Source: a candidate division WOR-3 bacterium
Lineage (GTDB): Bacteria; Hydrothermota; 32-111
DNA: 64,000 bases
Assembly (NCBI GenBank): GCA_039804105.1
Contig: JBDRZU010000001.1
Coordinates: 1,218,602 to 1,282,601 of the forward strand
Direction of reading: 5' to 3'
The notes beneath the pieces were generated by a model that was not told the DNA's origin, did no database searches, and saw nothing but the letters and a program-made list of their open reading frames with translations. Positions within the stretch are counted from its first letter, which is position 1, and every line of letters begins with the position of its first letter. Below are positions 9,764 through 63,793 of this stretch, piece by piece. The position numbers were made by a program, and so were the translations under genes.

Positions 9764-10542
9764 TCTTCCTCTTCTTTTTTAAAAATATTTTTTATTCTAT
9801 CAAAAAAACTGAAATTATTCAAGACCCTATTTTCTAAAAATTCTCCTACAACCACTTTTGAAGGATTTTCATAAAAAATTTTAATTGCGACATTTTTTCC
9901 AAAATTTTTTTCAATTACATTATAAGAGGATGATAGTATCGGTGGTCTTAAATCGATTGAATGTGCATCTGAAGAAATAAAATGAACAAGATTTTTTTTA
10001 AAAACTTTTAAAAACAGAGGAAAAACACTCTTATTTAAAGCATCATCCGTGTTAAACTGGAACAGAACTCCAAGATCTAAAAGTTCTTCAAGAAAAGAGA
10101 TGTTTGAAAAAATTTTTCTGTTCCTGAAAGGATGCACGATTATTGGGGTTATATCCATAGAGGTAAAATATTTTATTATTTCTTTATAATATAAAGGTAT
10201 ATCGAGAAAAGGAAATTCAAGAAGTATATATTTTCCCATTTCGTTTATGGTTAAAATATTTATATTTTCTTCATACTTTTTGATCAGGTCCTTATCGATT
10301 CTAACCTCAAACCCAAGATGTAGTTTTATATTGATATTTTCTTTTTCTGCTTTTTCTTTTAAGGTCTGGAAATTTTGTTTTGCCTGATCTGGTTCGTATC
10401 TGAATTCTTCTGCGATGTGTGGAGTTAAAACAATCTCTTTTATCCCATCATTTTGGGCAATTTTCAACATTTCCAGAGATGTTTCAAGATCTTTTGGTCC
10501 ATCATCTATTCCATAAAGTAAATGGTTATGAATATCGATCAT
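9760..10542 (-). CDS. PHP-family protein-tyrosine phosphatase (CpsB/YwqE-like)
   Basis: 260 aa. N-terminus MIDIHNHLLYGIDDGPKDLETSLEMLKIA matches the CpsB/CapC metal-dependent phosphatase pattern. Confidence 0.75.
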   Translation of the reverse strand: MIDIHNHLLYGIDDGPKDLETSLEMLKIAQNDGIKEIVLTPHIAEEFRYEPDQAKQNFQTLKEKAEKENINIKLHLGFEVRIDKDLIKKYEENINILTINEMGKYILLEFPFLDIPLYYKEIIKYFTSMDITPIIVHPFRNRKIFSNISFLEELLDLGVLFQFNTDDALNKSVFPLFLKVFKKNLVHFISSDAHSIDLRPPILSSSYNVIEKNFGKNVAIKIFYENPSKVVVGEFLENRVLNNFSFFDRIKNIFKKEEED

Positions 10543-18268: not shown

Positions 18269-18273
18269 AGATC

Positions 18274-18297
18274 GGGGACGGTGCTTGACTTTTTGAC
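18274..18297 (-). repeat. Conserved intergenic motif, copy a (reverse orientation)
   Basis: Plus strand reads GGGGACGGTGCTTGACTTTTTGAC, 5 nt after the stop of the 16280-18268 gene and upstream of the rRNA promoters. Confidence 0.95.
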
Positions 18298-18441: not shown

Positions 18442-19025
18442 TTTTATCCTTTTAAAATTTGATTGATCTTTGACATTTTGAATTTTGTGGAAAGGCATCT
18501 TATGGATTAAGATACTAAGAGTATGTGGGGAATGCCTTGGCACAGATAGGCGATGAAGGACGTAGCAGGCTGCGATAAGCCTCGGGGAGCCGCCAAGCGG
18601 GCTTAGATCCGAGGATCTCCGAATGGGGAAACCTTATACGGTAAACCCGTATAGTCCATGAATGAATACATAGTTCATGGTCGCCAACTCAGGGAAGTGA
18701 AACATCTCAGTACCTGAAGGAAAAGAAAACAAAAGTGATTCCCTAAGTAGTGGTGAGCGAAAGGGGAAGAGCCCAAACCGAGATGTATGTAAGGCTGCAA
18801 CCGTTGTACATCCGGTGTTGTGGGACCTGATAGACCGAGTGCAGTGAGGTCAAAAGGTTACAAATTGTTTGATTAGCAGAACTTGTCTGGAATGGCAGGC
18901 CATAGAAGGTGAAAGCCCGGTATGCAAAAATCAAACAACCTTTTTCAGGTATCCCAAGTACCACGGGACACGTGAAATCTTGTGGGAATCTGGGAGGACC
19001 ACCTCCTAAGGCTAAATACTCATCT

Positions 19026-19073
<48 letters not shown>

Positions 19074-19683
19074 TGGCGGGGAGTGAAATAGAATCTGAAA
19101 CCACATACTTACAATCAGTTGGAGGGCTACATTTCGGGCAACCGAAATATGCCTGACAGCGTACCTTTTGCATAATGGACCGGCGAGTTACTCTATGTTG
19201 CGAGGTTAAGTGAAAGTAATCACGGAACCGTAGCGAAAGCGAGTCCGAATAGGGCGTTTAGTAGCATGGAGTAGACCCGAAGCTGAACGAGCTATCCATG
19301 GCCAGAGTGAAGTCGGGGTAACACCCGATGGAGGCTCGAACTAGTAACCCTTTAAAAGGTTTTGGATGAGCTGTGGATGGGAGTGAAAGGCTTAACAAGT
19401 TCAGTGATAGCTGGTTCTCCCCGAAATAGCTTTAGGGCTAGCCTCGGATGGTCAGTATTGGGGGTAGAGCTCTGAAAAGGTTAGGGTGTCACAAGCATAC
19501 CGACCCTTATCAAACTACGAATCCTAATACTCAAAATCCGGGAGTCAGGCAGTGGGGGCTAAGCTTCATTGCCGAGAGGGAAACAACCCAGACCGTCAGT
19601 TAAGGTCCCAAAATATAGGCTAAGTGGTAAAGGATGTGAAATTACCCAGACAGCCAGGATGTTGGCTTAGAAGCAGCCATACA

Positions 19684-19717
<34 letters not shown>

Positions 19718-20497
19718 GTTTTGCGCCTAAAATTTAACGGGGCTTAAGCCTATTACCGAAACTGCGGAACAAGTTTTACTTGTTTGTAGGGGAGCGTTCT
19801 GTTGACGTTGAAGCGGTATCGCAAGGGGCCGTGGAGTTAACAGAAGTGAAAATGCCGGTATGAGTAGTGATAAAGCGGGCGAGAAACCCGCTCACCGAAA
19901 ATCCAAGGTTTCCTGGGGAAGGTTAATCCTCCCAGGGTTAGTCGGTGCCTAAGGTGAGGCCGAAAGGCGTAATCGATGGACAACAGGTTAATATTCCTGT
20001 ACCACCATTGTTTCGTTTGACTGAAGTGGGGGTGCAGAAGGGTAGACCTACCAGTTAGTGGATATACTGGGCCAAGCAGGTAGGAGGAAAGAGCAGGCAA
20101 ATCCACTCTTTCGTTAACTCCGAGATGTGATGGCGAGCTCATTAGAGCGAAGTGGTTAATCCCATGCTGACAAGAAAAGCCACGTAGGGAGAAACGATGG
20201 TGACCGTACCGTAAACCGACACAGGTGGATGAGGAGAGAATCCTAAGGTGCTCGAGTTATCTCTCGTCAAGGAACTCGGCAATTTACCCCCGTAACTTCG
20301 GGAAATGGGGGACCTGACTTGGTGAAGGATTTACTCCGTAAGCTAAGTTGGGTCGCAGAGAAATGGCTCATGCGACTGTTTATCAAAAACACAGGACTCT
20401 GCAAAGTCGTGAAGACGACGTATAGGGTCTGACACCTGCCCGGTGCCGGAAGGTTAAGGGAAGAGGTCAGGTCAAGCAATTGGCCAAAGCTTTGAAC

Positions 20498-21271
<774 letters not shown>

Positions 21272-21514
21272 TATGAGCAGTGTCTCGACGAGAGGCTCGA
21301 CGAACATTGTAGTGGCGGTGAAGATGCCGCCTACCCGCAATCGGACAAAAAGACCCCGTGAACCTTTACTGCACCTTGATATTGGGTTTTGGTGAGGTAT
21401 GTGTAGGATAGGTGGGAGGCTGTGAAGCCGGGGCGTCAGCTTCGGTGGAGCCAACGGTGAAATACCACCCTTATCTTATTGAAATTCTAACTTGCTCCTG
21501 TAAGCCAGGGCAAG

Positions 21515-21549
<35 letters not shown>

Positions 21550-21695
21550 TCCTCCTAAAAGGTAACGGAGGAGCACGAAGGTTCCCTCAATGCGGTTGGT
21601 AATCGCATGTAGAGCGCAAAGGTATAAGGGAGCTTAACTGTGAGATCGACGGATCGAGCAGGAACGAAAGTTGGTCTTAGTGATCCGGTGGTTCC

Positions 21696-21752
<57 letters not shown>

Positions 21753-21765
21753 TCCCCCAAGAGTC

Positions 21766-21838
<73 letters not shown>

Positions 21839-21859
21839 GGTCTGTTCGCCCATTAAAGT

Positions 21860-21902
<43 letters not shown>

Positions 21903-22242
21903 GTATCCATTGTGGGCGTATGAAATCTGAGGGTGTGCTGTCCCTAGTACGAAAGGACCGGGATGGGCAAACCTCCTGTGTACCAGTTGTCACGCCAGTG
22001 GCAGCGCTGGGTAGCAGTGTTTGTTCAGGATAACCGCTGAAAGCATCTAAGCGGGAAACCTACCCCAAGATAAGATTTCACTCCAGGTTTTCCTGGCGAA
22101 GGCTCCTGGGAGACTACCAGGTTGATAGGCTGCAAGTGTAAGTGCGGTAACGCATTCAGCTGAGCAGTACTAATAGGCCGAGAGTCTTAATCCTTAAGTT
22201 GTCTTTCTACAAATTCAAATGTCTTTAAATGTTATATAAATT

Positions 22243-24175: not shown

Positions 24176-24199
24176 GTCAAAAAGTCAAGCACCGTCCCC
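24176..24199 (+). repeat. Conserved intergenic motif, copy b (forward)
   Basis: GTCAAAAAGTCAAGCACCGTCCCC. Its reverse complement encodes the last residues (GDGA) and the TGA stop of the 24185-24769 minus-strand gene. Confidence 0.95.
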
Positions 24200-24769
24200 A
24201 TTATTGAATTTTCTGTCGAGGAGGAGGAGGAAGGTGTCGAAGACAGAGTCGTTAAAGTTGTCGTTTGTGATTCTTAATCGTTTACCTGAAAAAATTGTGA
24301 TCTGTGAAAACAGGTACCTGTTTGCTTTTCCCCCAAGTAGAATGTTTACTATCTTTCTATTGATTTTTTCAAATCTGTCTATACCTGTTATTTCACTATA
24401 AGGGATAAACTCTTCTTTTAAATTTTTACCTCTTTTTAAGAAGATACCTTTATCTGTTAAAAAAACAACTCTTATACCCTTCGTTTCCCAGACGATTTGA
24501 TCGATTATCATATAGATCACAAAAATTATAAAAATTACTGTGAGTGCGTGTTTTGTATACAACAATCTTATTTTCATCAGATTAAAGATGAAAAATCCAG
24601 CAATTATTGTTACAACAACCTTTACAAAAAGTTGCATCGGCAGAGAATCTGATCCCATCGCAAAAAAAGCACCTTCTGGAACATTATCTGTTAATACAGA
24701 TCTTTTTCTACCTGAATAGTTATTTTCGTCTTTCAGTATATAACCGTTATTATCAGTAAAGATTATCAT
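24185..24769 (-). CDS. Membrane protein with bacterial PH-like (DUF304-type) C-terminal domain
   Basis: 194 aa. Two central TM helices followed by a beta-rich segment (IRVVFLTDKGIFLKRGK...ITGIDRFE), typical of bPH domains. Confidence 0.4.
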   Translation of the reverse strand: MIIFTDNNGYILKDENNYSGRKRSVLTDNVPEGAFFAMGSDSLPMQLFVKVVVTIIAGFFIFNLMKIRLLYTKHALTVIFIIFVIYMIIDQIVWETKGIRVVFLTDKGIFLKRGKNLKEEFIPYSEITGIDRFEKINRKIVNILLGGKANRYLFSQITIFSGKRLRITNDNFNDSVFDTFLLLLDRKFNNGDGA

Positions 24770-47970: not shown

Positions 47971-47994
47971 GTCAAAAAGTCAAGCACCGTCCCC
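47971..47994 (+). repeat. Conserved intergenic motif, copy c (forward)
   Basis: GTCAAAAAGTCAAGCACCGTCCCC, preceded by TTTTTTATATGTTGCAAAAAAAA. That upstream flank is shared with copy d. Confidence 0.95.
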
Positions 47995-48094
47995 AAATTT
48001 AAAAAAAATTTTATTGTAAAATTTTTTGATTATCCATTTTGCTCGATTTTTAATTATGTAGAGTTAATAATTGGTATGAAAAGAAATTTGTCAG

Positions 48095-48131: not shown

Positions 48132-48329
48132 ATGATAAAAAACAAAGAAAAATTCTTTAAATTTGAAAAAAAATTAATTAAAAAAACAAAATATAATGTA
48201 AAAAAAAATTTTGAAATTTTTGAAACACTAAAAAGATACTATATTTTATTAGGGAGAAAACAATCGAATAAAGTAAATAGCATTGAACCAAAAATCAGAA
48301 TCGCCAGAGTATTAAATGAAAAAAAATAA
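48132..48329 (+). CDS. Small basic hypothetical protein (possible partner of the downstream nucleotidyltransferase-fold protein)
   Basis: 65-aa ORF overlapping the next gene by 14 nt. Confidence 0.4.
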   Translation: MIKNKEKFFKFEKKLIKKTKYNVKKNFEIFETLKRYYILLGRKQSNKVNSIEPKIRIARVLNEKK

Positions 48330-48873
48330 AAATCTCCTCTCCAGAATTGGAAAAGCACTCGATAAATTCGGAATAGATTATATGGTTATTGGTGGACAAG
48401 CGGTATTGTTATATGGAGAACCTCGTTTTACAAGAGATATTGATATTGTTATAGGAATTACCCCATCAAAAAAAGAAAAAATATTTGATTTGGTTAAAGA
48501 ATTGAAATTAAAAATTATAGTAAAAAATCCAGAGAAGTTTATAAAAGAAACCTATGTTTTACCTTGTGAATCTTCTTTAGATGTTATGAGAGTTGATTTT
48601 ATTTTTTCAGATTCCGAGTTTGAAAAGAATGCTTTAAAAAGGGTAAGAGTAAAAAAAATTGATGATTGCAAAGTAAAATTTGCTTCTATTGAAGACATTA
48701 TAATTTTAAAAATAGTTGCTGGCAGAGAAAGGGATCTTGAAGATGTTTACAACATTTTGTTAAAAAATAAAACAGTTGATTACAATTATATTTATAAATC
48801 TTTGAAGTTTTTTGAAACTATATTAAATACAGATTTATCATCAATTTTTAAAAATATCGTCTCCCGTACTTAA
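48316..48873 (+). CDS. Nucleotidyltransferase-fold protein (minimal NTase-like)
   Basis: 185 aa. VIGGQAVLLYGEPRFTRDIDIVI resembles the G-x-A...G..R.T.D.D core of small NTase-fold families found in toxin-antitoxin-like pairs. Confidence 0.5.
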   Translation: MKKNKNLLSRIGKALDKFGIDYMVIGGQAVLLYGEPRFTRDIDIVIGITPSKKEKIFDLVKELKLKIIVKNPEKFIKETYVLPCESSLDVMRVDFIFSDSEFEKNALKRVRVKKIDDCKVKFASIEDIIILKIVAGRERDLEDVYNILLKNKTVDYNYIYKSLKFFETILNTDLSSIFKNIVSRT

Positions 48874-48967: not shown

Positions 48968-48990
48968 GTCAAAAAGTCAAGCACCGTCCC
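48968..48990 (+). repeat. Conserved intergenic motif, copy d (forward)
   Basis: GTCAAAAAGTCAAGCACCGTCCC followed by T, with the same upstream flank as copy c. Confidence 0.95.
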
Positions 48991-49011
48991 TAAAAATTTA
49001 ACAAGCACCTT

Positions 49012-53379: not shown

Positions 53380-53403
53380 GTCAAAAAGTCAAGCACCGTC
53401 CCC
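53380..53403 (+). repeat. Conserved intergenic motif, copy e (forward)
   Basis: GTCAAAAAGTCAAGCACCGTCCCC preceded by an A6 tract. Confidence 0.95.
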
Positions 53404-53417
53404 AAATGAAAAAATGA

Positions 53418-53446: not shown

Positions 53447-53577
53447 CAAAAAAATTTTGATGAGGGTTGATGGGGAAAATTTTAAAAAAGTGTAGAAATT
53501 CCTTGTATTTAACAAATATTATTATTGAAATTCTTTTTTACTGTTTTTCAAAAAATTTGTTTCTATTTTTGAAAAAA

Positions 53578-53601
53578 GTCAAAAAGTCAAGCACCGTCCC
53601 C
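53578..53601 (+). repeat. Conserved intergenic motif, copy f (forward)
   Basis: GTCAAAAAGTCAAGCACCGTCCCC, ending 43 nt upstream of the ATG at 53645. Confidence 0.95.
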
Positions 53602-53644
53602 AAATTTAGTAACTTTTAAAATAAAGTGAGTTAGGAGAAGGAGT

Positions 53645-56600
53645 ATGAAAAATTTTATTACAAATAGTGGTGCGGAGAATCTCGAAAAAAGATTATCTGA
53701 ACTTATCATAAGCAGTGAGGAGTTAAAGTTTCTTGTTGGGTTTTTCTATTTTTCGGGATTGAAGGAACTTTATAATTCTCTTGTGAAAAATCAAAATGTA
53801 AATTTAAAAGTTCTTGTAGGACTCAATGTTGATAAGTTGAACGAAGAGATTATTGAATTTGCTGATCTTGAAGATAGGAAGGGATCTTGTTCTGGTGAAG
53901 AAATTTACAGTAAATTTCTGGTATCTTTGAAAAAGTCTATAAATAGTGAAAAGTTTGATAACAAAGAGTTTTATGAGCAGGTGAAATTTTTTATTGAACT
54001 TATAAAAAACGGAAATCTAAAGATCAGAAAAACAACAAAACCTAACCATTCAAAACTTTACATTTTTAAACTCAACAATTTACAGGTCGGAAGAAAAACT
54101 CTGTTTATTACTGGAAGCAGTAATCTGACAGGTTCTGGACTTTTAACACAGGAAGAGTTCAACATCGAAGTTTCTGATTATGGTTTCAAAGAGGCAGAAA
54201 AATACTTTGATGATTTATGGGATAAAGCGATTCCAATAACTGAAAATACTGTTAATAAAAATAGAATGTTAAAAATTCTTGAAAAAGAAACTTTTATAAA
54301 AGAGATAACACCTTTTGAAGCGTATCTTCTGGTTTTAAAATTCTATCTTGATTCATTTGAAATGAAGAATATTGGAAAATCTCTTGTTAGAATTATGGAA
54401 AAAAATAATTATACACCATACAAGTATCAACTTGATGCTATACAACAGGCAATTTCAATAATTGAAAAAAATAATGGTGTGATTCTTGCCGATGTTGTTG
54501 GTCTTGGAAAAAGTGTCATAGCATCTTTAATAGCAAGAGAACTCAACAAAAGGGGAGTTATAATCTGTCCACCTGCTCTTATGGGTGATAGTCGTTTGAA
54601 AAACACTGGCTGGTATATGTATAGGGAACAATTTGAACTATACGATTGGGATGTCTGGTCTATTGGAGATATTGAAAAACTTGAAAAATTTCTAAAAAAT
54701 AAACAGGATATAGAGGTTGTGATAATTGACGAAGCACACAGGTTTCGAAATCAGGATACGAAAGGATATGAGTGTTTAAAAAATATTTGCAGAGGGAGAA
54801 ATGTTATACTTTTAACTGCAACTCCTTTCAACAACAGACCTGAAGACATTTTATCACTTTTAAAACTTTTTGTTATTCCCAAAAAATCATCGATTACACT
54901 TGAAAACAATCTTGTTGAAAGATTCAGAAAATTCAAAAGTGTTTTTGAGGATCTTGCTTTGATAAAGAAAAATTATAAATCAACAGATAATAAAAAAAGA
55001 AAGAAAGCACTTGATACCTATAAATCACTTTTCGGGAAAGAGTTTTCAGGTGAAGAATCATTAAAAGATGTTAAAAAGCGTGCTCAATACCTTTCAAAAC
55101 AGATTAGAGATGTTATTGAACCAGTTGTGATAAGAAGGAATAGGTTGGATTTACAAAATAATCCATTATATAAAGATGAGATAAAACACCTTTCAAAAGT
55201 TGCTGATCCACAGGAATGGTTTTATGAGTTAACAAAAGAACAATCTGAATTTTACGATTCAATAGTTGAACATTATTTTGCTGATCCTGATGATGGTGGA
55301 GAGTTTAAAGGAGCGATATATAGACCTTTTGAATACGAAAAGGGAAAAGCAACAATAAAAGAACTCGAAAAGTTGTCTGATAAAGAAAATTTTGAATATA
55401 ACCAGCAAAAGAACCTGTGTGATTTTATGAGAAGATTGCTTGTTAAAAGGTTTGAAAGTTCGTTTGGTTCATTTGAACAGAGTTTGAAAAATTTTAAAGA
55501 GACAACCGAGACAGTTAAAAGTTTTATTGATAAAACTGGAAAATATATTCTTGATAGGGATTTGCTTGAACGGATTTATGAGATGGATATAGAAGATATA
55601 GAGGAGAGATTGAAAGAGTATGCTGAAACTATGAAAAGAAAGAATTATCCAAAATATTATAAGGTCTATGATATTAACAAGTTTCAAGATAAAGAAAAAT
55701 TTCTTGCAGATATAGATAACGATTTAAAAATCTTTGATGAGATACTTTCAAAACTGAAAAAGTTGAAACTTACAGAAAACTTTGATCCCAAAACGAAATG
55801 CCTCATCGAAAATTTAAAAAAACAGTTAAAAAAAGATGAAAAAAGAAAAATTGTAATTTTCTCAGAATATGTTGATACAGTAAAATATTTGCAACCAGCA
55901 CTTGAAAAAGTTTTTAAAGGAAGAGTTCTTTCTGTTCCGGGATTGTTGAATCAGACAAAGGAACATGAAATTTACGCAAACTTTGATGCATCGTTTGAAA
56001 AACAGAAAGATGATTATGATATTTTGTTAACATCTGATAAACTTTCTGAGGGGTTTAATCTCAATAGAGCAGGAATGATTATCAACTATGATATACCATG
56101 GAATCCTGTGAGAGTTATTCAAAGGGTTGGAAGAATCAATCGTATAAGTAAAAAAGTGTTTGATGAACTTTATATCGTGAACTTCTTTCCAACAGAAACT
56201 GGAGCAGACATTGTTAAATCAAGAGAGATCGCATCACATAAAATGTTTTTGATACACAACACCCTTGGAGAGGACTCAAAGATTTTTGATATTGATGAAA
56301 CACCTCAACCGTCAAAACTTTATGATAAGATAAATCAGAATCCTGAAAATATTGAACACGAAAGTTTTTATACAAAAGTTTTAAAAGAATTTTCTGAAAT
56401 CAAAAACAAATATCCTGAACTTCTTGAATCATTAAAAGATTTTCCAACAAGAGTCAAAGTTGCGAAAAAAGCGAAAGAGGATGAATTGATAGTTGTGATA
56501 AAAAAGGGAAGATTGTTTATAAATTCAATCAAAGATTTTGAAAATCCTGAACAGATGACTTTTGAAGAGGCATTTGAAAAGATCAAGTGTTCTCCAAATG

Positions 56601-57001
56601 AAAAATCGATTGAACTCAGTGAAAAATTTTGGGAAAAATACGATAAGATAAAAAATTTTAAAGAAACAGAAAAACCACTGCCAGAAAAAAGCAATGAACA
56701 GCAAGCGATAAATGTGTTAAAAAAACTAAAATCAAATCAAAATGACAAAATACTTGAATATCATAGTTTTATAAAAATGTTGCTTGAAGATATTGTTGAC
56801 TATGGAACATTATCATCTTACACCTTACGCAGAATAGCGAACCTTGAAACTGATGAGTCAAAAATCGAAAAGACGATAGAAGAATTGAAAAAACTCAAAG
56901 ATGAACTTGGAGAAAATTATCTTGAATATGAAAAGAAAAAGTATATTGAAGAGAGTAAAGAAATAATTGTTGCGATAGAAAATAGAAAAATAACAACCTA
57001 A
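53645..57001 (+). CDS. PLD-family (HKD) nuclease domain fused to an SNF2-family helicase/translocase
   Basis: 1118 aa. The N-terminal PLD motif is NHSKLYIF...ITGSSNLT. SNF2 motifs: I ADVVGLGKSVIA, II VIIDEAHRFRN, III LLTATPFNN, VI QRVGRINRIS. RBS AGGAGAAGGAG. Confidence 0.85.
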   Translation: MKNFITNSGAENLEKRLSELIISSEELKFLVGFFYFSGLKELYNSLVKNQNVNLKVLVGLNVDKLNEEIIEFADLEDRKGSCSGEEIYSKFLVSLKKSINSEKFDNKEFYEQVKFFIELIKNGNLKIRKTTKPNHSKLYIFKLNNLQVGRKTLFITGSSNLTGSGLLTQEEFNIEVSDYGFKEAEKYFDDLWDKAIPITENTVNKNRMLKILEKETFIKEITPFEAYLLVLKFYLDSFEMKNIGKSLVRIMEKNNYTPYKYQLDAIQQAISIIEKNNGVILADVVGLGKSVIASLIARELNKRGVIICPPALMGDSRLKNTGWYMYREQFELYDWDVWSIGDIEKLEKFLKNKQDIEVVIIDEAHRFRNQDTKGYECLKNICRGRNVILLTATPFNNRPEDILSLLKLFVIPKKSSITLENNLVERFRKFKSVFEDLALIKKNYKSTDNKKRKKALDTYKSLFGKEFSGEESLKDVKKRAQYLSKQIRDVIEPVVIRRNRLDLQNNPLYKDEIKHLSKVADPQEWFYELTKEQSEFYDSIVEHYFADPDDGGEFKGAIYRPFEYEKGKATIKELEKLSDKENFEYNQQKNLCDFMRRLLVKRFESSFGSFEQSLKNFKETTETVKSFIDKTGKYILDRDLLERIYEMDIEDIEERLKEYAETMKRKNYPKYYKVYDINKFQDKEKFLADIDNDLKIFDEILSKLKKLKLTENFDPKTKCLIENLKKQLKKDEKRKIVIFSEYVDTVKYLQPALEKVFKGRVLSVPGLLNQTKEHEIYANFDASFEKQKDDYDILLTSDKLSEGFNLNRAGMIINYDIPWNPVRVIQRVGRINRISKKVFDELYIVNFFPTETGADIVKSREIASHKMFLIHNTLGEDSKIFDIDETPQPSKLYDKINQNPENIEHESFYTKVLKEFSEIKNKYPELLESLKDFPTRVKVAKKAKEDELIVVIKKGRLFINSIKDFENPEQMTFEEAFEKIKCSPNEKSIELSEKFWEKYDKIKNFKETEKPLPEKSNEQQAINVLKKLKSNQNDKILEYHSFIKMLLEDIVDYGTLSSYTLRRIANLETDESKIEKTIEELKKLKDELGENYLEYEKKKYIEESKEIIVAIENRKITT

Positions 57002-57095
57002 AAATGAAAAGTGTGATTTATTAAACTTTGAGGTGTTAATTTTTACACTTCAAAAAATTTTGATGGGAAGGTAAAAAATTAAAAAAGGAATATAA

Positions 57096-60000
57096 ATGGG
57101 AGAAAAAGAAATTTTAAAAAAGATAATAGAAGATTTTGACCTTGAAAAGTTTGAAACATTTTTTCGCAGAAAAAATGATAGATTAAGATTTGATAGAGAA
57201 ACTTTAAGCAATTATGGTAATCAAAATTTTACTGATGGATTGAAATTTGCTGAAGGTGAACTTGATGATGGAGAGTTTATCGTTTGTGCCTATAAAATCC
57301 AAAAGAACCTATCAGAAAGAAGTAGTAAAAAAGAGCAGTATGAAATCGGTAAAAAGATATTAAAAAATTATCAGAAGGATGCTGGAATATTCATTTTTTA
57401 TGATAAAGAAAAAAATTTCAGATTCAGTTTAATCTATCCGATTTATTATGGAAGAAAAAGAGATTGGAGTAATTTTAAGAGATTCACTTATTTTGTAAGT
57501 AAACAGGAAACAAACAAAACATTTTTAACACAAATAGGTGAAGGTGATTTTTCAAGTATTGAAAAGATTAAATATGCGTTTTCAGTTGAAAAAGTTACAA
57601 AAGAATTTTATCAGGAAATTGCTTATTGGTATTTCTGGGCTTTGAAAGAATCAAAGTTTCCCGAAGATGCTGAAATTGAAAAAAATGGAAGAAACATAGC
57701 GCTTATCCGTCTTATTACACGATTGATTTTTATCTGGTTTATGAGACAGAAGGGAATAATCAAAAGGGAACTTTTTGATAAAAAGTTTTTAGAAACAATT
57801 TTAAAAGATTTCTCTCCAGAAGAAAGCACATTTTATCCTGCAATCCTTCAAAATCTCTTTTTTGCAACATTGAACACTCCAGTTGAGGATCGAAAATTCC
57901 GCAGAGAGGAAAGACATAAAGGATATTTGAATAAGGATTATATGAACCATTCTTATTATAGACATCATTCGCTTTTTAAAGATTCAGACAAAATGATAGA
58001 ACTTTTTAATGATATTCCATTTTTAAATGGAGGACTTTTTGAATGTCTTGATAAAAGAAAGGATGATGAATCAAACGATACAGGAAAAGAGATAAGAATA
58101 GATGGATTTTCAGATAATCCCAAAAAACAGCCCATTGTTCCAAACTTTTTATTCTTCTCAGATGAAAAAGAGGTTGATTTGAATAAGGACTTTGGAACAA
58201 AAGATAAAAGATACAAAGTAAGAGGAATAATCAATATTTTAAATTCCTACAATTTTACTATAGATGAGAATACTCCAATTGATGAGGAAGTCGCACTTGA
58301 CCCTGAACTTTTAGGTAGAGTGTTTGAAAATCTACTTGCAAGTTATAACCCTGAAACTTCAACAACAGCAAGAAAAGCAACAGGAAGTTATTACACTCCT
58401 CGTGAAATTGTTGATTTTATGGTGAAAGAGTCGTTGAAAGAGTATTTTAAAACAAAGATTGAAAATATTGATGAGGAAAAACTTGAAAAAGTTTTTCAAT
58501 ACGATGATTCTGAAAATCCTTTTGATGAGAAAACAACCAAAGAACTTATAAATGCAATAAATAACCTAAAACTTCTTGATCCTGCTGTTGGATCAGGAGC
58601 ATTTCCGATGGGTGCTTTACACCAACTTGTGAATATTTTACATAAGTTGGATCCCCATAATAAAAGATGGAAAGAGGAACAAATAAAAGCGGTTGATTAT
58701 ATAACAGATCCAAAAATAAAGCAGGAAATGATTAATAAAATTGAAGAAAATTTTTCTCTGAACGAACTTGATTATGGAAGGAAACTTTATCTCATACAGA
58801 ATTGTATTTATGGAGTTGATATACAGCCGATTGCAATACAGATAGCAAAGTTAAGATGCTTTATCTCACTTCTTGTTGATGAGAATGTTGACAAAAACAA
58901 AAAAAATTTTGGTATAGAGCCACTTCCTAACCTTGAAACAAAGTTTGTGGTAACAGATAGTTTAAAAAAATTAAAAGTGGAAACAGTTCTTAGATCAAAC
59001 GATATAGTGCAAACAGAAATAGATCTTACAGAGATAAGGAACCGATATTTTATTTCATCAGATATAAGAGAAAAAAATAAACTCAAAAAGAAGGATAGTG
59101 AATTAAGGAAAAAACTTGCAGAAAATTTTTTGAAATTTGGTAATTTATCGAAAACTGATTCAGAAAAAATTGCCTCATGGAATCCATACAATACAGATAA
59201 ACCTGCAGACTGGTTTGATCCTGAATTTATGTTTGGAATAAGAGATGGTTTTGATATTGTTATTGGAAATCCTCCTTACATTCAATTACAAAAGGATAGT
59301 GGAAAACTTGCTGAAGAATATCAAAGTTATAAATATGAAACTTTTGCACGGACTGGAGATATTTATACTTTGTTTTATGAAAGAGGAATTGATTTACTAC
59401 AAGACAATGGATTGCTCTGTTATATAACTTCAAACAAATGGATGAGATCTGGCTATGGAGAAAAATTGAGATGCTATTTCACTCAGTATAATCCACTTCT
59501 TCTTATTGATTTGGGACCAGGAGTTTTTGAACATGCGACTGTTGATACAAACATTTTACTTTTACAGAAAAAAGAAAGCAAAAGGTATGATTATAAATTG
59601 AAGGGACTAATACTTCAAAAAACTGATAAACTATCGATAGAACAACAAATTAAAGAAAACAGCACAAAGATTAAAAAACTAACAAAAGAAGCGTGGTTTA
59701 TTGGATCAAGTGCAGAGCAAAAGTTAAAAGAAAAAATTGAACATATTGGAAAACCTTTAAAATTATGGGATGTGAAAATTTATTATGGCATCAAGACAGG
59801 GCTCAATGAAGCGTTTATTATTACAACTGAAAAGAGAGAAGAGATCCTTGCAAATTGTAAAGATAAAGAAGAAAGAAAACGAACCGAAGCGATAATAAAA
59901 CCGATTCTCCGTGGTAGAGACATCAGTCGCTACTACTACGAATGGGCAGGATTGTGGGTGATAGGAACTTTTCCTGCTTTGAATTTGAATATAGAAGAAT

Positions 60001-60575
60001 ATCCTGCTTTAAAAAAATATTTTCTTGATAATTTTGATATTCGTCGATTAGAACAATCAGGGAAAAAATATCCTCATCTTGGTATTGATGCTCGTAAAAA
60101 AACAGATAATAAATGGTTTGAAACGCAAGATCAAATTGCCTACTACCCTGAGTTCGAAAAAGAGAAGGTGGTGTGGACTGCTGTAAACAGTAAATATAGC
60201 TTTACCATATTACCCCCTGGATTTTATTTTAATAATTCTATTTTTATGATAACTGGTTGTAACGCTAAATTATGGTGTGCAATATTTAATTCAAAACTTA
60301 TTAGAAAATATATGCAATTTTTATTTGCCTCTGAAGAAAATTATACCTACGCTTCAAAAGAAAATGTAGAAAAAATCCCTATTCCCATTATAACTAATGA
60401 AAATGAAAGTATTGTTAAACAGATAGAAAATTTAGTAGATAAAATTCTTATCGCTAAAAAACAATGTCCTCAAAGTGATATAAAAAGTGATATAAAAAAT
60501 TGGGAGCAAGAAATAGATCAGCTTGTGTATAAATTATATAAATTAAACAAGGAGGAAATATGTTTAGTAAATTAA
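57096..60575 (+). CDS. Eco57I/type IIG-like gamma-class N6-adenine DNA methyltransferase with C-terminal target-recognition domain
   Basis: 1159 aa. Motif I is LDPAVGSGAFP, followed by motif IV VIGNPPYIQ (gamma order). The C-terminal region is TaqI/Eco57I-like (YYGIKTGLNEAFII). I could not identify a nuclease motif in the N-terminal region of about 250 aa. Confidence 0.8.
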   Translation: MGEKEILKKIIEDFDLEKFETFFRRKNDRLRFDRETLSNYGNQNFTDGLKFAEGELDDGEFIVCAYKIQKNLSERSSKKEQYEIGKKILKNYQKDAGIFIFYDKEKNFRFSLIYPIYYGRKRDWSNFKRFTYFVSKQETNKTFLTQIGEGDFSSIEKIKYAFSVEKVTKEFYQEIAYWYFWALKESKFPEDAEIEKNGRNIALIRLITRLIFIWFMRQKGIIKRELFDKKFLETILKDFSPEESTFYPAILQNLFFATLNTPVEDRKFRREERHKGYLNKDYMNHSYYRHHSLFKDSDKMIELFNDIPFLNGGLFECLDKRKDDESNDTGKEIRIDGFSDNPKKQPIVPNFLFFSDEKEVDLNKDFGTKDKRYKVRGIINILNSYNFTIDENTPIDEEVALDPELLGRVFENLLASYNPETSTTARKATGSYYTPREIVDFMVKESLKEYFKTKIENIDEEKLEKVFQYDDSENPFDEKTTKELINAINNLKLLDPAVGSGAFPMGALHQLVNILHKLDPHNKRWKEEQIKAVDYITDPKIKQEMINKIEENFSLNELDYGRKLYLIQNCIYGVDIQPIAIQIAKLRCFISLLVDENVDKNKKNFGIEPLPNLETKFVVTDSLKKLKVETVLRSNDIVQTEIDLTEIRNRYFISSDIREKNKLKKKDSELRKKLAENFLKFGNLSKTDSEKIASWNPYNTDKPADWFDPEFMFGIRDGFDIVIGNPPYIQLQKDSGKLAEEYQSYKYETFARTGDIYTLFYERGIDLLQDNGLLCYITSNKWMRSGYGEKLRCYFTQYNPLLLIDLGPGVFEHATVDTNILLLQKKESKRYDYKLKGLILQKTDKLSIEQQIKENSTKIKKLTKEAWFIGSSAEQKLKEKIEHIGKPLKLWDVKIYYGIKTGLNEAFIITTEKREEILANCKDKEERKRTEAIIKPILRGRDISRYYYEWAGLWVIGTFPALNLNIEEYPALKKYFLDNFDIRRLEQSGKKYPHLGIDARKKTDNKWFETQDQIAYYPEFEKEKVVWTAVNSKYSFTILPPGFYFNNSIFMITGCNAKLWCAIFNSKLIRKYMQFLFASEENYTYASKENVEKIPIPIITNENESIVKQIENLVDKILIAKKQCPQSDIKSDIKNWEQEIDQLVYKLYKLNKEEICLVN

Positions 60576-61069
60576 TTCAATCAATTTTAGTGCTAACTTC
60601 AATAGCACCTGTTTTGCTAACTTTTTGGTTCAAAAACTTTAGTAAAGATTGGAAACCATTTTCTGGTTTTATTTATTTATTTTTTTCATTTCTTTTGATT
60701 ATTTTGCTTGTTATAATAATTAAAATCGCAAAAAGCAAACTTGAAGTTAAAGAAATTTCTATCAATGAAATTTCTAATGCTGATAATGAAAGTGTTATAT
60801 TTATCTTTACATATCTTATTCCTTTATTAAATATAGATGAACCTTTGGTTTTATTTTTATTAGGTCTAACTTTTGTTATTGTATCAACAACTAATATTTA
60901 TCATTTTAATCCATTTCTTGGTTTGTTGGGTTATCATCAATATAAGATGAAATTACAAGAAGGAATGAGTTTTATTTTGATAACAAAAAAAACATTATAT
61001 AATACAAAACAAATAAAAAAAGTAGTACAATTAACCAATTATATTTTGTTAGAAAGGGAGGAATTATGA
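60560..61069 (+). CDS. Four-TM membrane protein, KwaA-like candidate
   Basis: 169 aa with four hydrophobic helices and a cytosolic tail of about 45 aa. The start overlaps the methyltransferase gene by 16 nt, and the end overlaps the next gene by 4 nt. Confidence 0.35.
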   Translation: MFSKLIQSILVLTSIAPVLLTFWFKNFSKDWKPFSGFIYLFFSFLLIILLVIIIKIAKSKLEVKEISINEISNADNESVIFIFTYLIPLLNIDEPLVLFLLGLTFVIVSTTNIYHFNPFLGLLGYHQYKMKLQEGMSFILITKKTLYNTKQIKKVVQLTNYILLEREEL

Positions 61070-61917
61070 ATGTTTATGCAGTTTTAAGAGACTCTGATTC
61101 AAATGGTAGCTGCATTATTAAAAGTATTAGTTTAACCCAAAAGTTACAAAAAGAACTGACGGGTTACATTCCTTTTAAAAGTTATGAAGATGAAAACATA
61201 AAGCAAATTAGATTTTCAGGAGAGTATAAACCAGATGAACAAGAAGTACTTTATATTAACAAATTTTACAATCCTTTTAAAGAGTTTGACTCAATTACTG
61301 ATACATTAAATAAAAGTGATATTGATAATATTAAATTTTTAGCTTTTGTAGATAGTCAAAAAATTGCATATCAATCTTTTGACAGTAGAAAAATAATAAC
61401 ACCTGAAAAGTGGTTTTTAATATATTCCGATAATACCTATTCTAAAATAGATAAGAAAGGGTTAATAATAGATTCCAGAATCGATGCATTATATTTGAAA
61501 AAGGAAGAGAAATTATTATTTTTTTCTTATCGCAATGCAATAAAAATATTTGATTTAGGAAAATATTATCGAGAAGCAACCGAAGACGAGTTAAATTTGT
61601 TTACAAAAGAAGAAATTTTTATATTTAATGAAGGTTTTGATAAAAATCTATTAAGCTCAAAAATGCGAAAAAAAATTTTTATGATACAAAAAAATGAGAT
61701 CTTAACAAAAATTAAAAATAATTTTAACCAAGTAGTAAATTATGCTAAAAAATTAAACGTTGATGAAATGTTTGACAAAAACAATAAAAAAATCATTTTT
61801 CCAAAAGAAAAGAAAAATATAGAAAAATTATTAAATTTTTTGAATGAGGATTTATACGAATCTCCTATTAGTGGTTTAATATACGAGACAAATTCAAAAA
61901 AATTGGTAACTGAATAG
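61066..61917 (+). CDS. DUF4868-like protein, KwaB-like candidate
   Basis: 283 aa. Size, position after a 4-TM protein, and sequence features (FSGEYKPDEQEVLYI, KIFDLGKYYREATEDELNLF) fit my recollection of the DUF4868/KwaB family. Not verified by any search. Confidence 0.4.
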   Translation: MNVYAVLRDSDSNGSCIIKSISLTQKLQKELTGYIPFKSYEDENIKQIRFSGEYKPDEQEVLYINKFYNPFKEFDSITDTLNKSDIDNIKFLAFVDSQKIAYQSFDSRKIITPEKWFLIYSDNTYSKIDKKGLIIDSRIDALYLKKEEKLLFFSYRNAIKIFDLGKYYREATEDELNLFTKEEIFIFNEGFDKNLLSSKMRKKIFMIQKNEILTKIKNNFNQVVNYAKKLNVDEMFDKNNKKIIFPKEKKNIEKLLNFLNEDLYESPISGLIYETNSKKLVTE

Positions 61918-62094: not shown

Positions 62095-62994
62095 TTAATT
62101 TTTAGTACTTGACAAAATATAGTAGATTGAACTTACTTGATTCACGTATGATTCATCTGGATTATATCCATAAAAAATTAATTCAATGTTGTTAAGATCG
62201 ATTTTTTTATATAGATCAATTAAAATTTTTAATCCTTCTTTTAAACTTTCTTCATCACTTAAAGGTTTAATCGATTTTACTTGCATAATACCAGTAGTTC
62301 TTGATTTTTTGCTAAAAAAGAAAAACTTATTTTCTAAAATTCTTATAAATTTTGGCCTATTAAAATTTTCATATATCATAATTGAGAGAATAATGTTTTT
62401 TAAGTTAGGATCTTCAATTTCATTTAAAATTTTAGAAAAATTTTTCTTTAATTTTTGTGCCATTTTGATGATGTAATTTTTTTTTACGTAATCATCCCTT
62501 TGGGAAGTAGAATAATTTTTGTAATTAAAAATACTATAAATATATAAAATTATCAATAACCATAATTCATTTGAAAGTGATTTAATATCAGGAATAATTA
62601 GGTTTTTATTTTTCAGAAGTTTAAAATATGTTATTAAAGAAAATAAAATTATTAAAATGTCGTTTAGTATTTCTTTTTTCCAATTCGTTAAGTAAACTCT
62701 ATCGAAAAAAAATTTATAAAAAATTCTTAATAGTATATAAAAAACAGAGACAAAATAAATGTTTTCTATTAAAAAATTAAAATTTAATACATAAAAAAAA
62801 GCAGATATTATAAACAAAAAAATTGAAGGACCTAAAATTTTATAGACAAAATTAAAAGCAGGAGAGTAAAATTGATCATTTTCAAAATTTAAAGGTTCAT
62901 AACCATAAAAAGAGGATTTTTTTCCAAAAAAATTTATAAAAAAGAACAATATAAAAGAAAAAATTAAATGAAAAACAATTTTAATAATTACCAT
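62095..62994 (-). CDS. Membrane protein of unknown function (N-terminal TM bundle, soluble C-terminal domain)
   Basis: 299 aa with 4-5 TM helices. The C-terminal IYENFNRP...TTGIMQV faintly resembles lytic-transglycosylase motifs, with low certainty. Confidence 0.4.
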   Translation of the reverse strand: MVIIKIVFHLIFSFILFFFINFFGKKSSFYGYEPLNFENDQFYSPAFNFVYKILGPSIFLFIISAFFYVLNFNFLIENIYFVSVFYILLRIFYKFFFDRVYLTNWKKEILNDILIILFSLITYFKLLKNKNLIIPDIKSLSNELWLLIILYIYSIFNYKNYSTSQRDDYVKKNYIIKMAQKLKKNFSKILNEIEDPNLKNIILSIMIYENFNRPKFIRILENKFFFFSKKSRTTGIMQVKSIKPLSDEESLKEGLKILIDLYKKIDLNNIELIFYGYNPDESYVNQVSSIYYILSSTKN

Positions 62995-63108
62995 ATTAAA
63001 AATTTTAATAGATTTTTTTTAAAGTTCAAGATACTGATTAAAAATATTATTATAAGGAAGGTTTTTGAAAAAATATGTGATATCTTTCATTTTAGTTGTT
63101 AACTTTCA

Positions 63109-63131
63109 GGGACGGTGCTTGACTTTTTGAC
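63109..63131 (-). repeat. Conserved intergenic motif, copy g (reverse orientation)
   Basis: Plus strand reads GGGACGGTGCTTGACTTTTTGAC, 114 nt upstream of the 62095-62994 minus-strand gene start. Confidence 0.95.
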
Positions 63132-63370: not shown

Positions 63371-63793
63371 ATGAATTTTATTAATTTAATTAAAATTCAA
63401 AAAAATAACATAGAAATCATTTTACCCCTTGTTTTTGAAAAAAATAAAATTGAATTAAAAGAGAAATTCCAATCTATCTTGGAAACAGAGAATTTTAATG
63501 TTTTTTGGATTAAAGAAATATTTAAAAACTACAGGGAATTAAAAGTTTTTTTAGAAGAAAAAAATTACAACTTTAAAACAGAAATAAGTATAAATTTTAA
63601 GAAAACAGAGTTTAAAAATAGAACTTATTTTGTAACAATATACAGGACAAGTTTGGTAGGTTTTTCTTCTTTTAATTTTGAAGGGTTTTTGTTAAATGTT
63701 GGAGAAAATTATGATATTGTTAAATGGCTTATAAAATGTAATAAACCTTTCAAAAGAAGGAGGGAGCAAAATGGTTTTTTCCAAAAGATGTAA
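63371..63793 (+). CDS. Hypothetical protein
   Basis: 140-aa ORF, no family recognised. The next gene's AGGAGGGAG RBS is embedded in its 3' end. Confidence 0.4.
   Translation: MNFINLIKIQKNNIEIILPLVFEKNKIELKEKFQSILETENFNVFWIKEIFKNYRELKVFLEEKNYNFKTEISINFKKTEFKNRTYFVTIYRTSLVGFSSFNFEGFLLNVGENYDIVKWLIKCNKPFKRRREQNGFFQKM

Follow-up and report, generated by a model that had tools for sequence, protein, structure and literature searches.

The question raised by the locus described here is whether a restriction-modification (R-M)-like gene pair and a Kiwa-like gene pair that share one operon encode a single composite defence system or two separate ones. The operon occupies positions 53645-61917 of a 64,000-nt stretch of DNA (the window; all coordinates given without a locus number refer to its full length) from a metagenome-assembled genome (MAG) of a candidate division WOR-3 bacterium, and consists of a PLD-SNF2 gene (gene 1, g1), an Eco57I-type methyltransferase gene (gene 2, g2), kwaA and kwaB. 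We favour, with a probability of about 0.62, the reading that the locus combines a two-gene R-M-like system with a recombination-mobile Kiwa cassette, which is co-expressed with it as an autonomous second layer of defence.

The operon and its products

An open reading frame (ORF) check of the window returned four tightly packed ORFs, all on the + strand, and matched exactly the four co-oriented genes and the 16-nt and 4-nt overlaps set out in an earlier note made from the sequence alone. The Pfam and PADLOC searches that this note had proposed were run, and assigned the products as a PLD-SNF2 protein, an Eco57I methyltransferase, KwaA and KwaB. Gene 1 (53645..57001, +; 1118 aa) encodes a predicted restriction subunit of the PLD(HKD)-SNF2 type and gene 2 (57096..60575, +; 1159 aa) a gamma N6-adenine methyltransferase of the Eco57I/PglX/DrmMI type. 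Gene 3 (kwaA; 60560..61069, +; 169 aa) overlaps g2 by 16 nt, and gene 4 (kwaB; 61066..61917, +; 283 aa; DUF4868 fold) overlaps kwaA by 4 nt. The ATG of kwaA is preceded, 4 nt away, by a strong Shine-Dalgarno sequence, AAGGAGG (60549..60555, +), which lies within the tail codons of the methyltransferase gene (…NKEEI…). We infer that the four genes are co-transcribed and that translation of kwaA is coupled to that of the methyltransferase. The GC fraction is 0.30 across g1 and most of g2, 0.275 at the 3' end of g2 and 0.22-0.23 in kwaAB.

The description of gene 1 as a PLD(HKD)-SNF2 fusion was borne out by its Pfam domains (PLDc_2, SNF2-rel_dom and Helicase_C) and by its catalytic motifs; H135/K137, GSSN157-160, GLGK286-289 (Walker A) and DEAH362-365 were invariant in an alignment of 17 homologues. 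The PLD(HKD) region spans approximately aa 30-203 and also matches Pfam RE_NgoFVII, the SNF2-type ATPase/translocase spans approximately aa 258-845, and the C-terminal region is uncharacterised. In PADLOC, matches were obtained to DrmD (1e-36) and to a candidate model described only as 'HKD+Snf2' (8.6e-30), whose underlying system could not be traced in the literature searched. More than 5770 homologues, with labels from many phyla, were found; among the 120 closest listed, identity was 60-69%, with one at 89%, and nearly all were full-length, while more distant family members fall to about 30% identity.

Gene 2 carries the Pfam domains Eco57I, N6_Mtase and TaqI_C, arranged as an N-terminal alpha/beta domain, a helical region, the methyltransferase core, a TaqI_C-type target-recognition domain (TRD; aa 935-1096) and a conserved C-terminal helical tail. 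Motif I (DPAxGSG495-501) and NPPY725-728 were invariant among 42 homologues. No Pfam domain and, in the 42-homologue alignment, no conserved D...(D/E)xK motif was detected in residues 1-190, where the invariant positions are R109, R129, T142, F162 and S163; the structural model (predicted local distance difference test score, pLDDT, 79) nevertheless has a confident alpha/beta domain in this region. The PLD domain of gene 1 is thus the only recognisable nuclease of the operon, and Pfam and the alignment agree with the earlier view of gene 2 as an 1159-aa Eco57I-like methyltransferase with a TRD and without a recognisable nuclease motif. Profile and Foldseek searches aligned the gene 2 model with CamA, BseCI, PglX/BrxX, MmeI, LlaBIII and DrdV.

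Kiwa, with its proteins KwaA and KwaB, reportedly goes back to work by Doron in 2018. The KwaA of the window was matched by PADLOC over its full length at 4.3e-46 (its aa 1-167 align with positions 1-171 of the 173 in the profile); its NCBIfam score (54 bits) is below the cut-off of 100, and it is therefore regarded as a divergent member. About four hydrophobic segments were seen by hydropathy, in keeping with the 4-TM (four transmembrane segment) protein noticed earlier. KwaB was matched by PADLOC over its full length (7e-54). The only significant fold match of its AlphaFold2 model (pLDDT 79) in the PDB was the KwaB crystal structure 9mtn (Foldseek; E 3e-6, TM-score 0.56-0.59), to which it is about 11% identical; a KwaB profile search of PDB sequences gave no match, 9mtn being recovered by the fold search alone. 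Both lines of evidence uphold the earlier view of gene 4 as a DUF4868-like protein and of the two genes as a Kiwa-like pair. A Pfam scan of the KwaA and KwaB proteins matched neither, and close KwaB homologues carry a precomputed PF16162 annotation.

As in Kiwa, a small multi-pass membrane protein is thus encoded directly upstream of a protein with the DUF4868 fold, in the same order and by overlapping genes. The differences are that the sequences are very divergent from known Kiwa, and that the pair is no free-standing operon, kwaA beginning inside an Eco57I-type methyltransferase gene. Among related loci (designated by L numbers), kwaB is split into two ORFs in L110 (9965-10827) and kwaA is frameshifted in L097 (601-1169), which may reflect decay or assembly errors; recurrent KwaB splits have been reported for Kiwa (PMC11785009).

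Distribution of the two pairs and the cargo slot

One genome per GTDB species was scanned with the gene 1 alignment, 80 loci were kept, and g2-like neighbours were called by local hidden Markov model (HMM) searches. A g2-like gene was adjacent to g1 and on the same strand in 67 of the 80 loci, and most of the remaining 13 end at contig ends. The usual g1/g2 junction in these relatives is a 4-nt overlap, against a 94-nt spacer in the window. In the window, the two genes are co-oriented neighbours of conserved full length with an intact HKD motif, Walker A motif, DEAH box and NPPY motif. Kiwa was present in a single g1-anchored locus (L073, from a Brachyspira MAG, in which all four genes recur and their order is kept), and g1-g2 stand without Kiwa in 66 of the 67 paired loci, as they do in the P0004 loci. 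The g1-g2 pair is a self-standing two-gene module that occurs across many phyla. No name and no experiment for such a module were found in the literature searched.

Across the g1-anchored loci, what follows the methyltransferase as the next co-oriented gene differs in almost every case. The closest relatives of gene 2 lack Kiwa: in L115 (g2 82% identical) an AAA_15 ABC ATPase begins 16 nt after the methyltransferase, and in L114 (74% identical) SIR2 and a HerA-like ATPase follow after 14 nt. Elsewhere the same position is occupied by OLD-type ATPase-TOPRIM proteins, AAA_15/21 ATPases, SIR2, GmrSD, caspase, Abi_2, DUF3800, DUF4062, a RAMP protein, a HAD phosphatase, an IS200-like transposase or YagJ, and by several proteins without a family match; L038, L050 and L083 are examples of loci whose cargo has none. 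The position just 3' of the methyltransferase is a variable cargo slot, filled in relatives by unrelated defence genes. Of the two options offered by the earlier note, the one that sees in the locus a minimal ATP-dependent R-M variant to which Kiwa has been appended therefore fits best, given this variable slot and the frequency of g1-g2 alone; the other, a single composite system, is in its obligate form the less likely reading.

Insertions were also seen between the two genes of the module. Two RHH-PIN toxin-antitoxin pairs lie between g1 and g2 in L114 (6482-7994), and a YhcG/DUF1016 nuclease lies between the PLD-SNF2 and methyltransferase genes in L095 (3985-5180); the g1-g2 junction therefore also takes cargo.

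From the Kiwa side, the contigs of 21 KwaB homologues (the closest 40-57% identical), 16 metagenome loci and L073 were examined with local HMMs. These recovered divergent methyltransferases, such as that of L100, that had been missed by tblastn with the g2 of the window; a viral scan returned distant Kiwa alone. Of the 15 loci of this Kiwa lineage that could be assessed, 13-14 have an Eco57I-type methyltransferase gene immediately before kwaA (the window, L073, L088, L090, L092, L095, L096, L098, L100, L106, L108, L109 and L110, and weakly L097), always in the same order and orientation. The distance of this gene from kwaA ranges from -16 to +108 nt. The overlaps stressed in the earlier note are real in the window, and the coupled translation that it suggested is plausible there for kwaA, whose Shine-Dalgarno sequence lies inside g2; what is conserved in the relatives is the tight spacing, not the overlap itself. 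A PLD-SNF2 gene is found further upstream in 7 of the 8 loci with enough sequence. The exception is L110, which combines Kiwa with a methyltransferase bearing N-terminal DUF7149/DUF7814 domains and has no PLD-SNF2 gene; from this arrangement, the constant neighbour of Kiwa is the 3' end of the methyltransferase gene and not the nuclease. Within the lineage L094 is the exception that has Kiwa without a methyltransferase, and none is present either in L113, whose KwaB is more distant (32% identical). The surveyed loci derive from MAGs bearing the labels WOR-3, Brachyspira or Thermaurantimonas, or from unassigned metagenome contigs. The link between this Kiwa lineage and the 3' end of the methyltransferase gene is recurrent and not due to chance.

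No description of Kiwa linked to PLD-SNF2 proteins or Eco57I-type methyltransferases was found in the literature searched, which included work on BREX-related systems, embedded defence genes, modularity and ARMADA. Within the portions of the Kiwa mechanism paper covered by term searches, no link to a methyltransferase or helicase appeared (PMC11785009); in the same portions, Kiwa neighbourhoods are analysed for mobile elements, and prophages, plasmids and genomic islands co-localise with Kiwa.

More distant Kiwa pairs were seen in other R-M settings. On the Bartonella sp. HY406 plasmid NZ_CP104897 (L116, 8339-9717), a type I R-M operon holds kwaA and a DUF4868 gene between its hsdS and hsdR genes, and the stop codon of kwaB overlaps the start of hsdR; this kwaA is missing from the PLSDB gene table of the plasmid. 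The order in L120 is hsdM-hsdS-hsdR-kwaAB-mcrBC, and in L118 kwaAB directly follow a gene for a protein with an RE_endonuc domain. Distant Kiwa lie in prophage contexts in L117 and L119. These cases hint that more distant Kiwa pairs also occur within or beside R-M operons, in a sample too small to generalise from.

Mosaic structure and the weighing of alternatives

Identities are discordant in several related loci. In L073 and L109, KwaA is 97% and KwaB 100% identical, but g1 is 31% and g2 54% identical; they have in common a 3.2-kb DNA segment of 93% identity on otherwise unrelated backbones. This segment begins within the methyltransferase gene, about 500 codons before its stop, takes in kwaAB, and stops in a short, orphaned methyltransferase C-terminal tail, of the type '…IVDKILAAKK…EREIDRLVYELYDLxEEEI…'. 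Orphan tails lie beside Kiwa at 12847-13086 in L073, 8484-8591 in L090, 9910-10044 in L095 and 2973-3134 in L099, and as two copies in L100 (2685-2832 and 4136-4276); in L094, where Kiwa is otherwise alone, one lies on either side of it (8359-8439 and 9901-9936). These fragments have the look of traces left by recombination into methyltransferase genes already resident there. Discordant identities were also obtained for L088 (KwaA/KwaB 70/56% but g1/g2 33/29%) and L095 (g1 29% but g2 57%).

Gene 2 of the window has a mosaic 3' segment. At the DNA level, 89.5% identity with L115, its closest full-length relative, extends over 57073-59963 only and ends 612 nt before the g2 stop codon; the remaining 3' segment (59964..60575, +; aa 957-1159) is of other affinity. 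The N-terminal part of the protein is 90% identical to that of L115, and the last 203 residues match best the methyltransferase of L114 (76%). Recombination between the conserved methyltransferase core and tail, which would swap the specificity region together with the trailing cargo, is the simplest account of these sequence patterns. The L073/L109 segment and the orphan tails point to movement of Kiwa by recombination in conserved methyltransferase sequence.

IS200-like Y1 transposase domains (PF01797) are fused to, or come after, several gene-2-type methyltransferases (the gene 2 homologues P0180, P0204, P0242, P0245, P0248 and P0252; L085, 12881-13525; L100, 2835-3497). These domains may contribute to the mobility of the g2 3' region.

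How the two modules might act can be sketched by analogy. E. coli Kiwa is a membrane supercomplex that senses the entry of a phage or plasmid, and its KwaB binds DNA and protects (PMC11785009). In the operon of the window, the methyltransferase would mark host sites with N6-methyladenine (m6A) through its TaqI_C-type recognition domain, and the PLD-SNF2 protein would translocate with ATP along unmarked DNA and cut it; as there is a single HKD motif per chain, two copies would have to join for one active site. KwaA would sense the membrane disturbance at DNA entry, and KwaB would bind the incoming DNA and block replication and late transcription, as in E. coli Kiwa (PMC11785009). Both modules would then be complementary layers acting on the same incoming DNA, neither needing the other.

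Two observations speak for independent modules: g1-g2 and Kiwa are distributed separately, and the slot takes varied cargo. Several points weigh against the reading of two co-expressed modules joined by recombination. A weak terminator-like hairpin (57027..57054, +) lies in the 94-nt spacer between g1 and g2 and bears on co-transcription. No orphan methyltransferase tail was found downstream of kwaB in the window. Co-inheritance of the C-terminal 200 aa of the window's g2 with Kiwa was considered but not supported, the closest sequence being that of the SIR2-HerA-linked methyltransferase; co-transfer of a methyltransferase segment with Kiwa is therefore documented in relatives and not in the window. 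On the Kiwa side, about 15 distinct loci make a small sample, because word-based searches returned few homologues, and many of the loci recovered lie on short contigs. No experiment on the four proteins or on the g1-g2 family was found in the literature searched. Finally, a functional dependence would also explain why this Kiwa lineage is tied almost without exception to such methyltransferases.

That dependence is the core of the strongest alternative, which we consider possible though doubtful: the four proteins would form one integrated system, in which KwaA detects the entry of DNA at the membrane, KwaB captures that DNA and then passes it to, or licenses, the PLD-SNF2 protein, the methyltransferase protects self DNA, and the PLD-SNF2 protein takes the helicase-nuclease role of RecBCD beside Kiwa in E. 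coli. The recurrence of the link is in its favour, above all its re-formation on unrelated g1/g2 backbones (L088; L073/L109), together with the tight or overlapping spacing and a Shine-Dalgarno sequence inside the methyltransferase gene. The occurrence of distant Kiwa in R-M operons (hsdS-kwaAB-hsdR in L116, hsdMSR-kwaAB in L120, and L118) and the documented functional interplay of KwaB with RecBCD and Gam (PMC11785009) point the same way. However, g1-g2 do without Kiwa in nearly all paired loci, the same slot is occupied by many unrelated defence genes, the L110 arrangement dispenses with PLD-SNF2 and L094 keeps Kiwa alone. Kiwa is also self-sufficient in E. coli (PMC11785009), and recombination footprints would account for the linkage without any functional dependence. 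A related proposal, equally tentative, is that this Kiwa lineage is a dedicated R-M partner whose KwaA and KwaB would trap DNA at entry, at the membrane, and present it to PLD-SNF2, self DNA being marked by the methyltransferase. If true, a four-component system would join entry sensing to sequence-marked restriction, with PLD-SNF2 replacing the RecBCD partnership, and the position of Kiwa after specificity genes (the Eco57I-type TRD, the Bartonella hsdS) would reflect function and not hitch-hiking alone.

The division of labour within g1-g2 could also be drawn otherwise, with gene 2 as a self-contained Type IIG/IIL enzyme and gene 1 as a separate, Type IV-like PLD-helicase restriction enzyme. 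The PADLOC match of gene 2 to REase_MTase_IIG (PDLC03596; 1e-172), the Foldseek alignment over 1066 columns with MmeI (5hr4), with DrdV also aligned, and the alpha/beta domain modelled with confidence for residues 1-135 would suit such an enzyme. This is nonetheless improbable, as neither a Pfam nuclease domain nor a conserved D...(D/E)xK motif shows in residues 1-190, the nuclease-less PglX/BrxX, and not MmeI, are by sequence profile the nearest full-length relatives of solved structure, and co-oriented g1/g2 neighbours with a typical 4-nt overlap (67/80 loci) are the pattern of subunits of one system.

The earlier note had also pointed out that an SNF2 helicase, a PLD nuclease and an Eco57I-type methylase are components of class 1 DISARM, and the best named matches, DrmD for gene 1 (PADLOC 1e-36; NCBIfam DISARM_DrmD 158 bits) and DrmMI for gene 2 (PADLOC 7e-32), bear out the resemblance, to which a match of gene 1 to HmaA (8e-26) can be added. 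It had reported DrmA/DrmB and BREX genes to be absent, and library scans of the operon and flanking ORFs concurred: no DrmA/DrmB, BREX or Hma/BR gene was found in the operon, in 14 kb upstream or in 2 kb downstream. DrmA/DrmB were absent too from relatives with 10-kb flanks, and no DUF1998, DUF499, DUF3780, PglZ or BrxC gene was found near g1-g2 in the relatives with genes listed. An origin of the locus by decay of class 1 DISARM (or of ARMADA/Hma), through loss of DrmA/DrmB (or of the DUF499 ATPase), is very unlikely. The DrmD score is far below the equivalog cut-off of 610 and covers the helicase core only, the HmaA match extends only over the helicase C-terminal half, the PglX NCBIfam score of gene 2 is 61 bits against a cut-off of 900, and NCBIfam gave no DrmMI-level match for it. 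No DUF1998, DUF499, DUF3780 or PglZ gene is nearby in the window either. In 67/80 loci across phyla, two genes and a fused PLD are the norm, with 50-69% identity along the full length; this is therefore a stable architecture and not a remnant.

Membership of DISARM, BREX and Hma was accordingly rejected, the core genes being missing. Class 1 DISARM and ARMADA combine the same three activities; the locus differs in being without the DrmA/YprA helicase and the DUF1998 protein DrmB, and in having its PLD fused to the SNF2 N-terminus, whereas the DrmC PLD is a separate gene. Of BREX, the PglX-like methyltransferase core alone is present, the PglZ phosphatase and BrxC ATPase not being found in neighbouring ORFs. 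In Hma (Type-2 'BREX-related') systems, for which an R-M-like action has been proposed, an HKD-Swi2/Snf2 protein and an N6-methyltransferase accompany a central DUF499 AAA+ ATPase, along with DUF3780 (PMC12839542). The N-terminal fusion of an HKD nuclease to a Swi2/Snf2 helicase and its pairing with an N6-methyltransferase are alike, but neither a DUF499 AAA+ ATPase nor a DUF3780 gene is found here or in the relatives. Since scores fall far below cut-offs and DUF499/DrmA/DrmB-type cores are missing, the g1-g2 pair is regarded as a distinct two-gene form.

The Type III and Type ISP enzymes (Res/Mod; LlaGI/LlaBIII) and NgoAVII/CglI likewise pair a helicase-nuclease subunit with a TRD-bearing methyltransferase; LlaBIII was aligned with g2 by Foldseek, and NgoAVII/CglI are ATP-dependent PLD enzymes. 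Unlike in Type III and ISP systems, the motor here is of the SNF2 type and not Rad25/HsdR-like, the nuclease is PLD and not PD-(D/E)xK or Mrr, and the methyltransferase is an 1159-aa PglX-like protein. Variable cargo that is nested or appended, co-oriented and tightly spaced is known from 'embedded' defence genes (bioRxiv 10.1101/2024.01.29.577857) and from auxiliary effectors of BREX/BR systems (PMC12839542). In the portions of these texts that were searched, Kiwa as cargo and a PLD-SNF2/methyltransferase host are unreported. What sets the locus apart from these cases is that its kind of cargo appears to travel with the 3' specificity part of the methyltransferase gene.

Adjacency of the two pairs by mere chance, a fortuity that the earlier note had raised, can be dismissed as highly improbable despite the general clustering of defence genes in islands and the single Kiwa among 80 g1-anchored loci, because 13-14 of 15 loci in the neighbourhood survey, from MAGs of several phyla and unassigned metagenome contigs, have the methyltransferase gene as neighbour within 108 nt, with order and orientation unchanged.

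Repeated motif, neighbouring genes and implications

A 23-nt invariant motif, GTCAAAAAGTCAAGCACCGTCCC, occurs in seven copies in the window against none expected. Two copies lie upstream of g1: the distal one, AAAGTCAAGCACCGTCCCCAAAT (53385..53407, +), is part of a 37-nt direct repeat with a copy at 53569-53605, and the proximal one (53583..53605, +) ends 40 nt before the g1 start codon. The nearest downstream copy (63104..63126, -) is inverted and is found 1.2 kb beyond kwaB, upstream of the converging ORF 62095-62994(-) and about 110 nt from its start. The others are at 18270-18292(-), 24181-24203(+), 47976-47998(+) and 48973-48995(+). Copies stand in pairs around the 23S-5S genes, around an AbiEii/DUF6036-like ORF, and around the defence operon together with ORF 62095-62994. 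The motif was also found in the related contigs L001 (upstream of g1) and L115, in the latter at the downstream contig end and in the same relative orientation.

The statement that inverted copies flank the operon is thus literally true, yet it is not specific to the operon, because the upstream copies are direct repeats, the inverted copy lies beyond another ORF and further copies are spread across the window. Terminal inverted repeats of a mobile element were considered and rejected as an explanation, there being seven copies window-wide, some of them by rRNA or other genes. GTCAAAAAGTCAAGCACCGTCCC is a repeated element of the window and of the two related contigs, perhaps a regulatory site or a repeat resembling repetitive extragenic palindromic (REP) sequences.

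Just past kwaB, ORF 62095-62994(-) (299 aa) gave no match in Pfam, PADLOC or NCBIfam, and ORF 63371-63793(+) (140 aa) none in Pfam or PADLOC. Both sit in a very AT-rich stretch (GC approximately 0.19) and could be further island cargo. Far upstream, the ORF at 48316-48873(+), for a DUF6036/DUF2204/AbiEii-like nucleotidyltransferase, is flanked by two direct copies of the motif. An Rfam scan of the window returned rRNAs only. The 23S rRNA gene (18505-22194) exceeds the Rfam model by about 765 nt, and a LAGLIDADG homing endonuclease ORF (20613-21185; Pfam 4e-20) lies inside it, which suggests that the gene carries an intron-like insertion.

The findings bear on three levels of the biology of these loci. 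The g1-g2 module appears to be an unnamed, experimentally untouched and very widespread type of ATP-dependent R-M. Turnover in the slot behind its methyltransferase mixes known and unknown genes and so provides a guilt-by-position list for new defence genes. One Kiwa lineage appears to move with the 3' specificity part of an R-M methyltransferase gene, a route by which a cassette could spread alongside swaps of specificity. The locus thereby offers a clear case for asking whether restriction and the sensing of entry at the membrane work together against one and the same incoming DNA.

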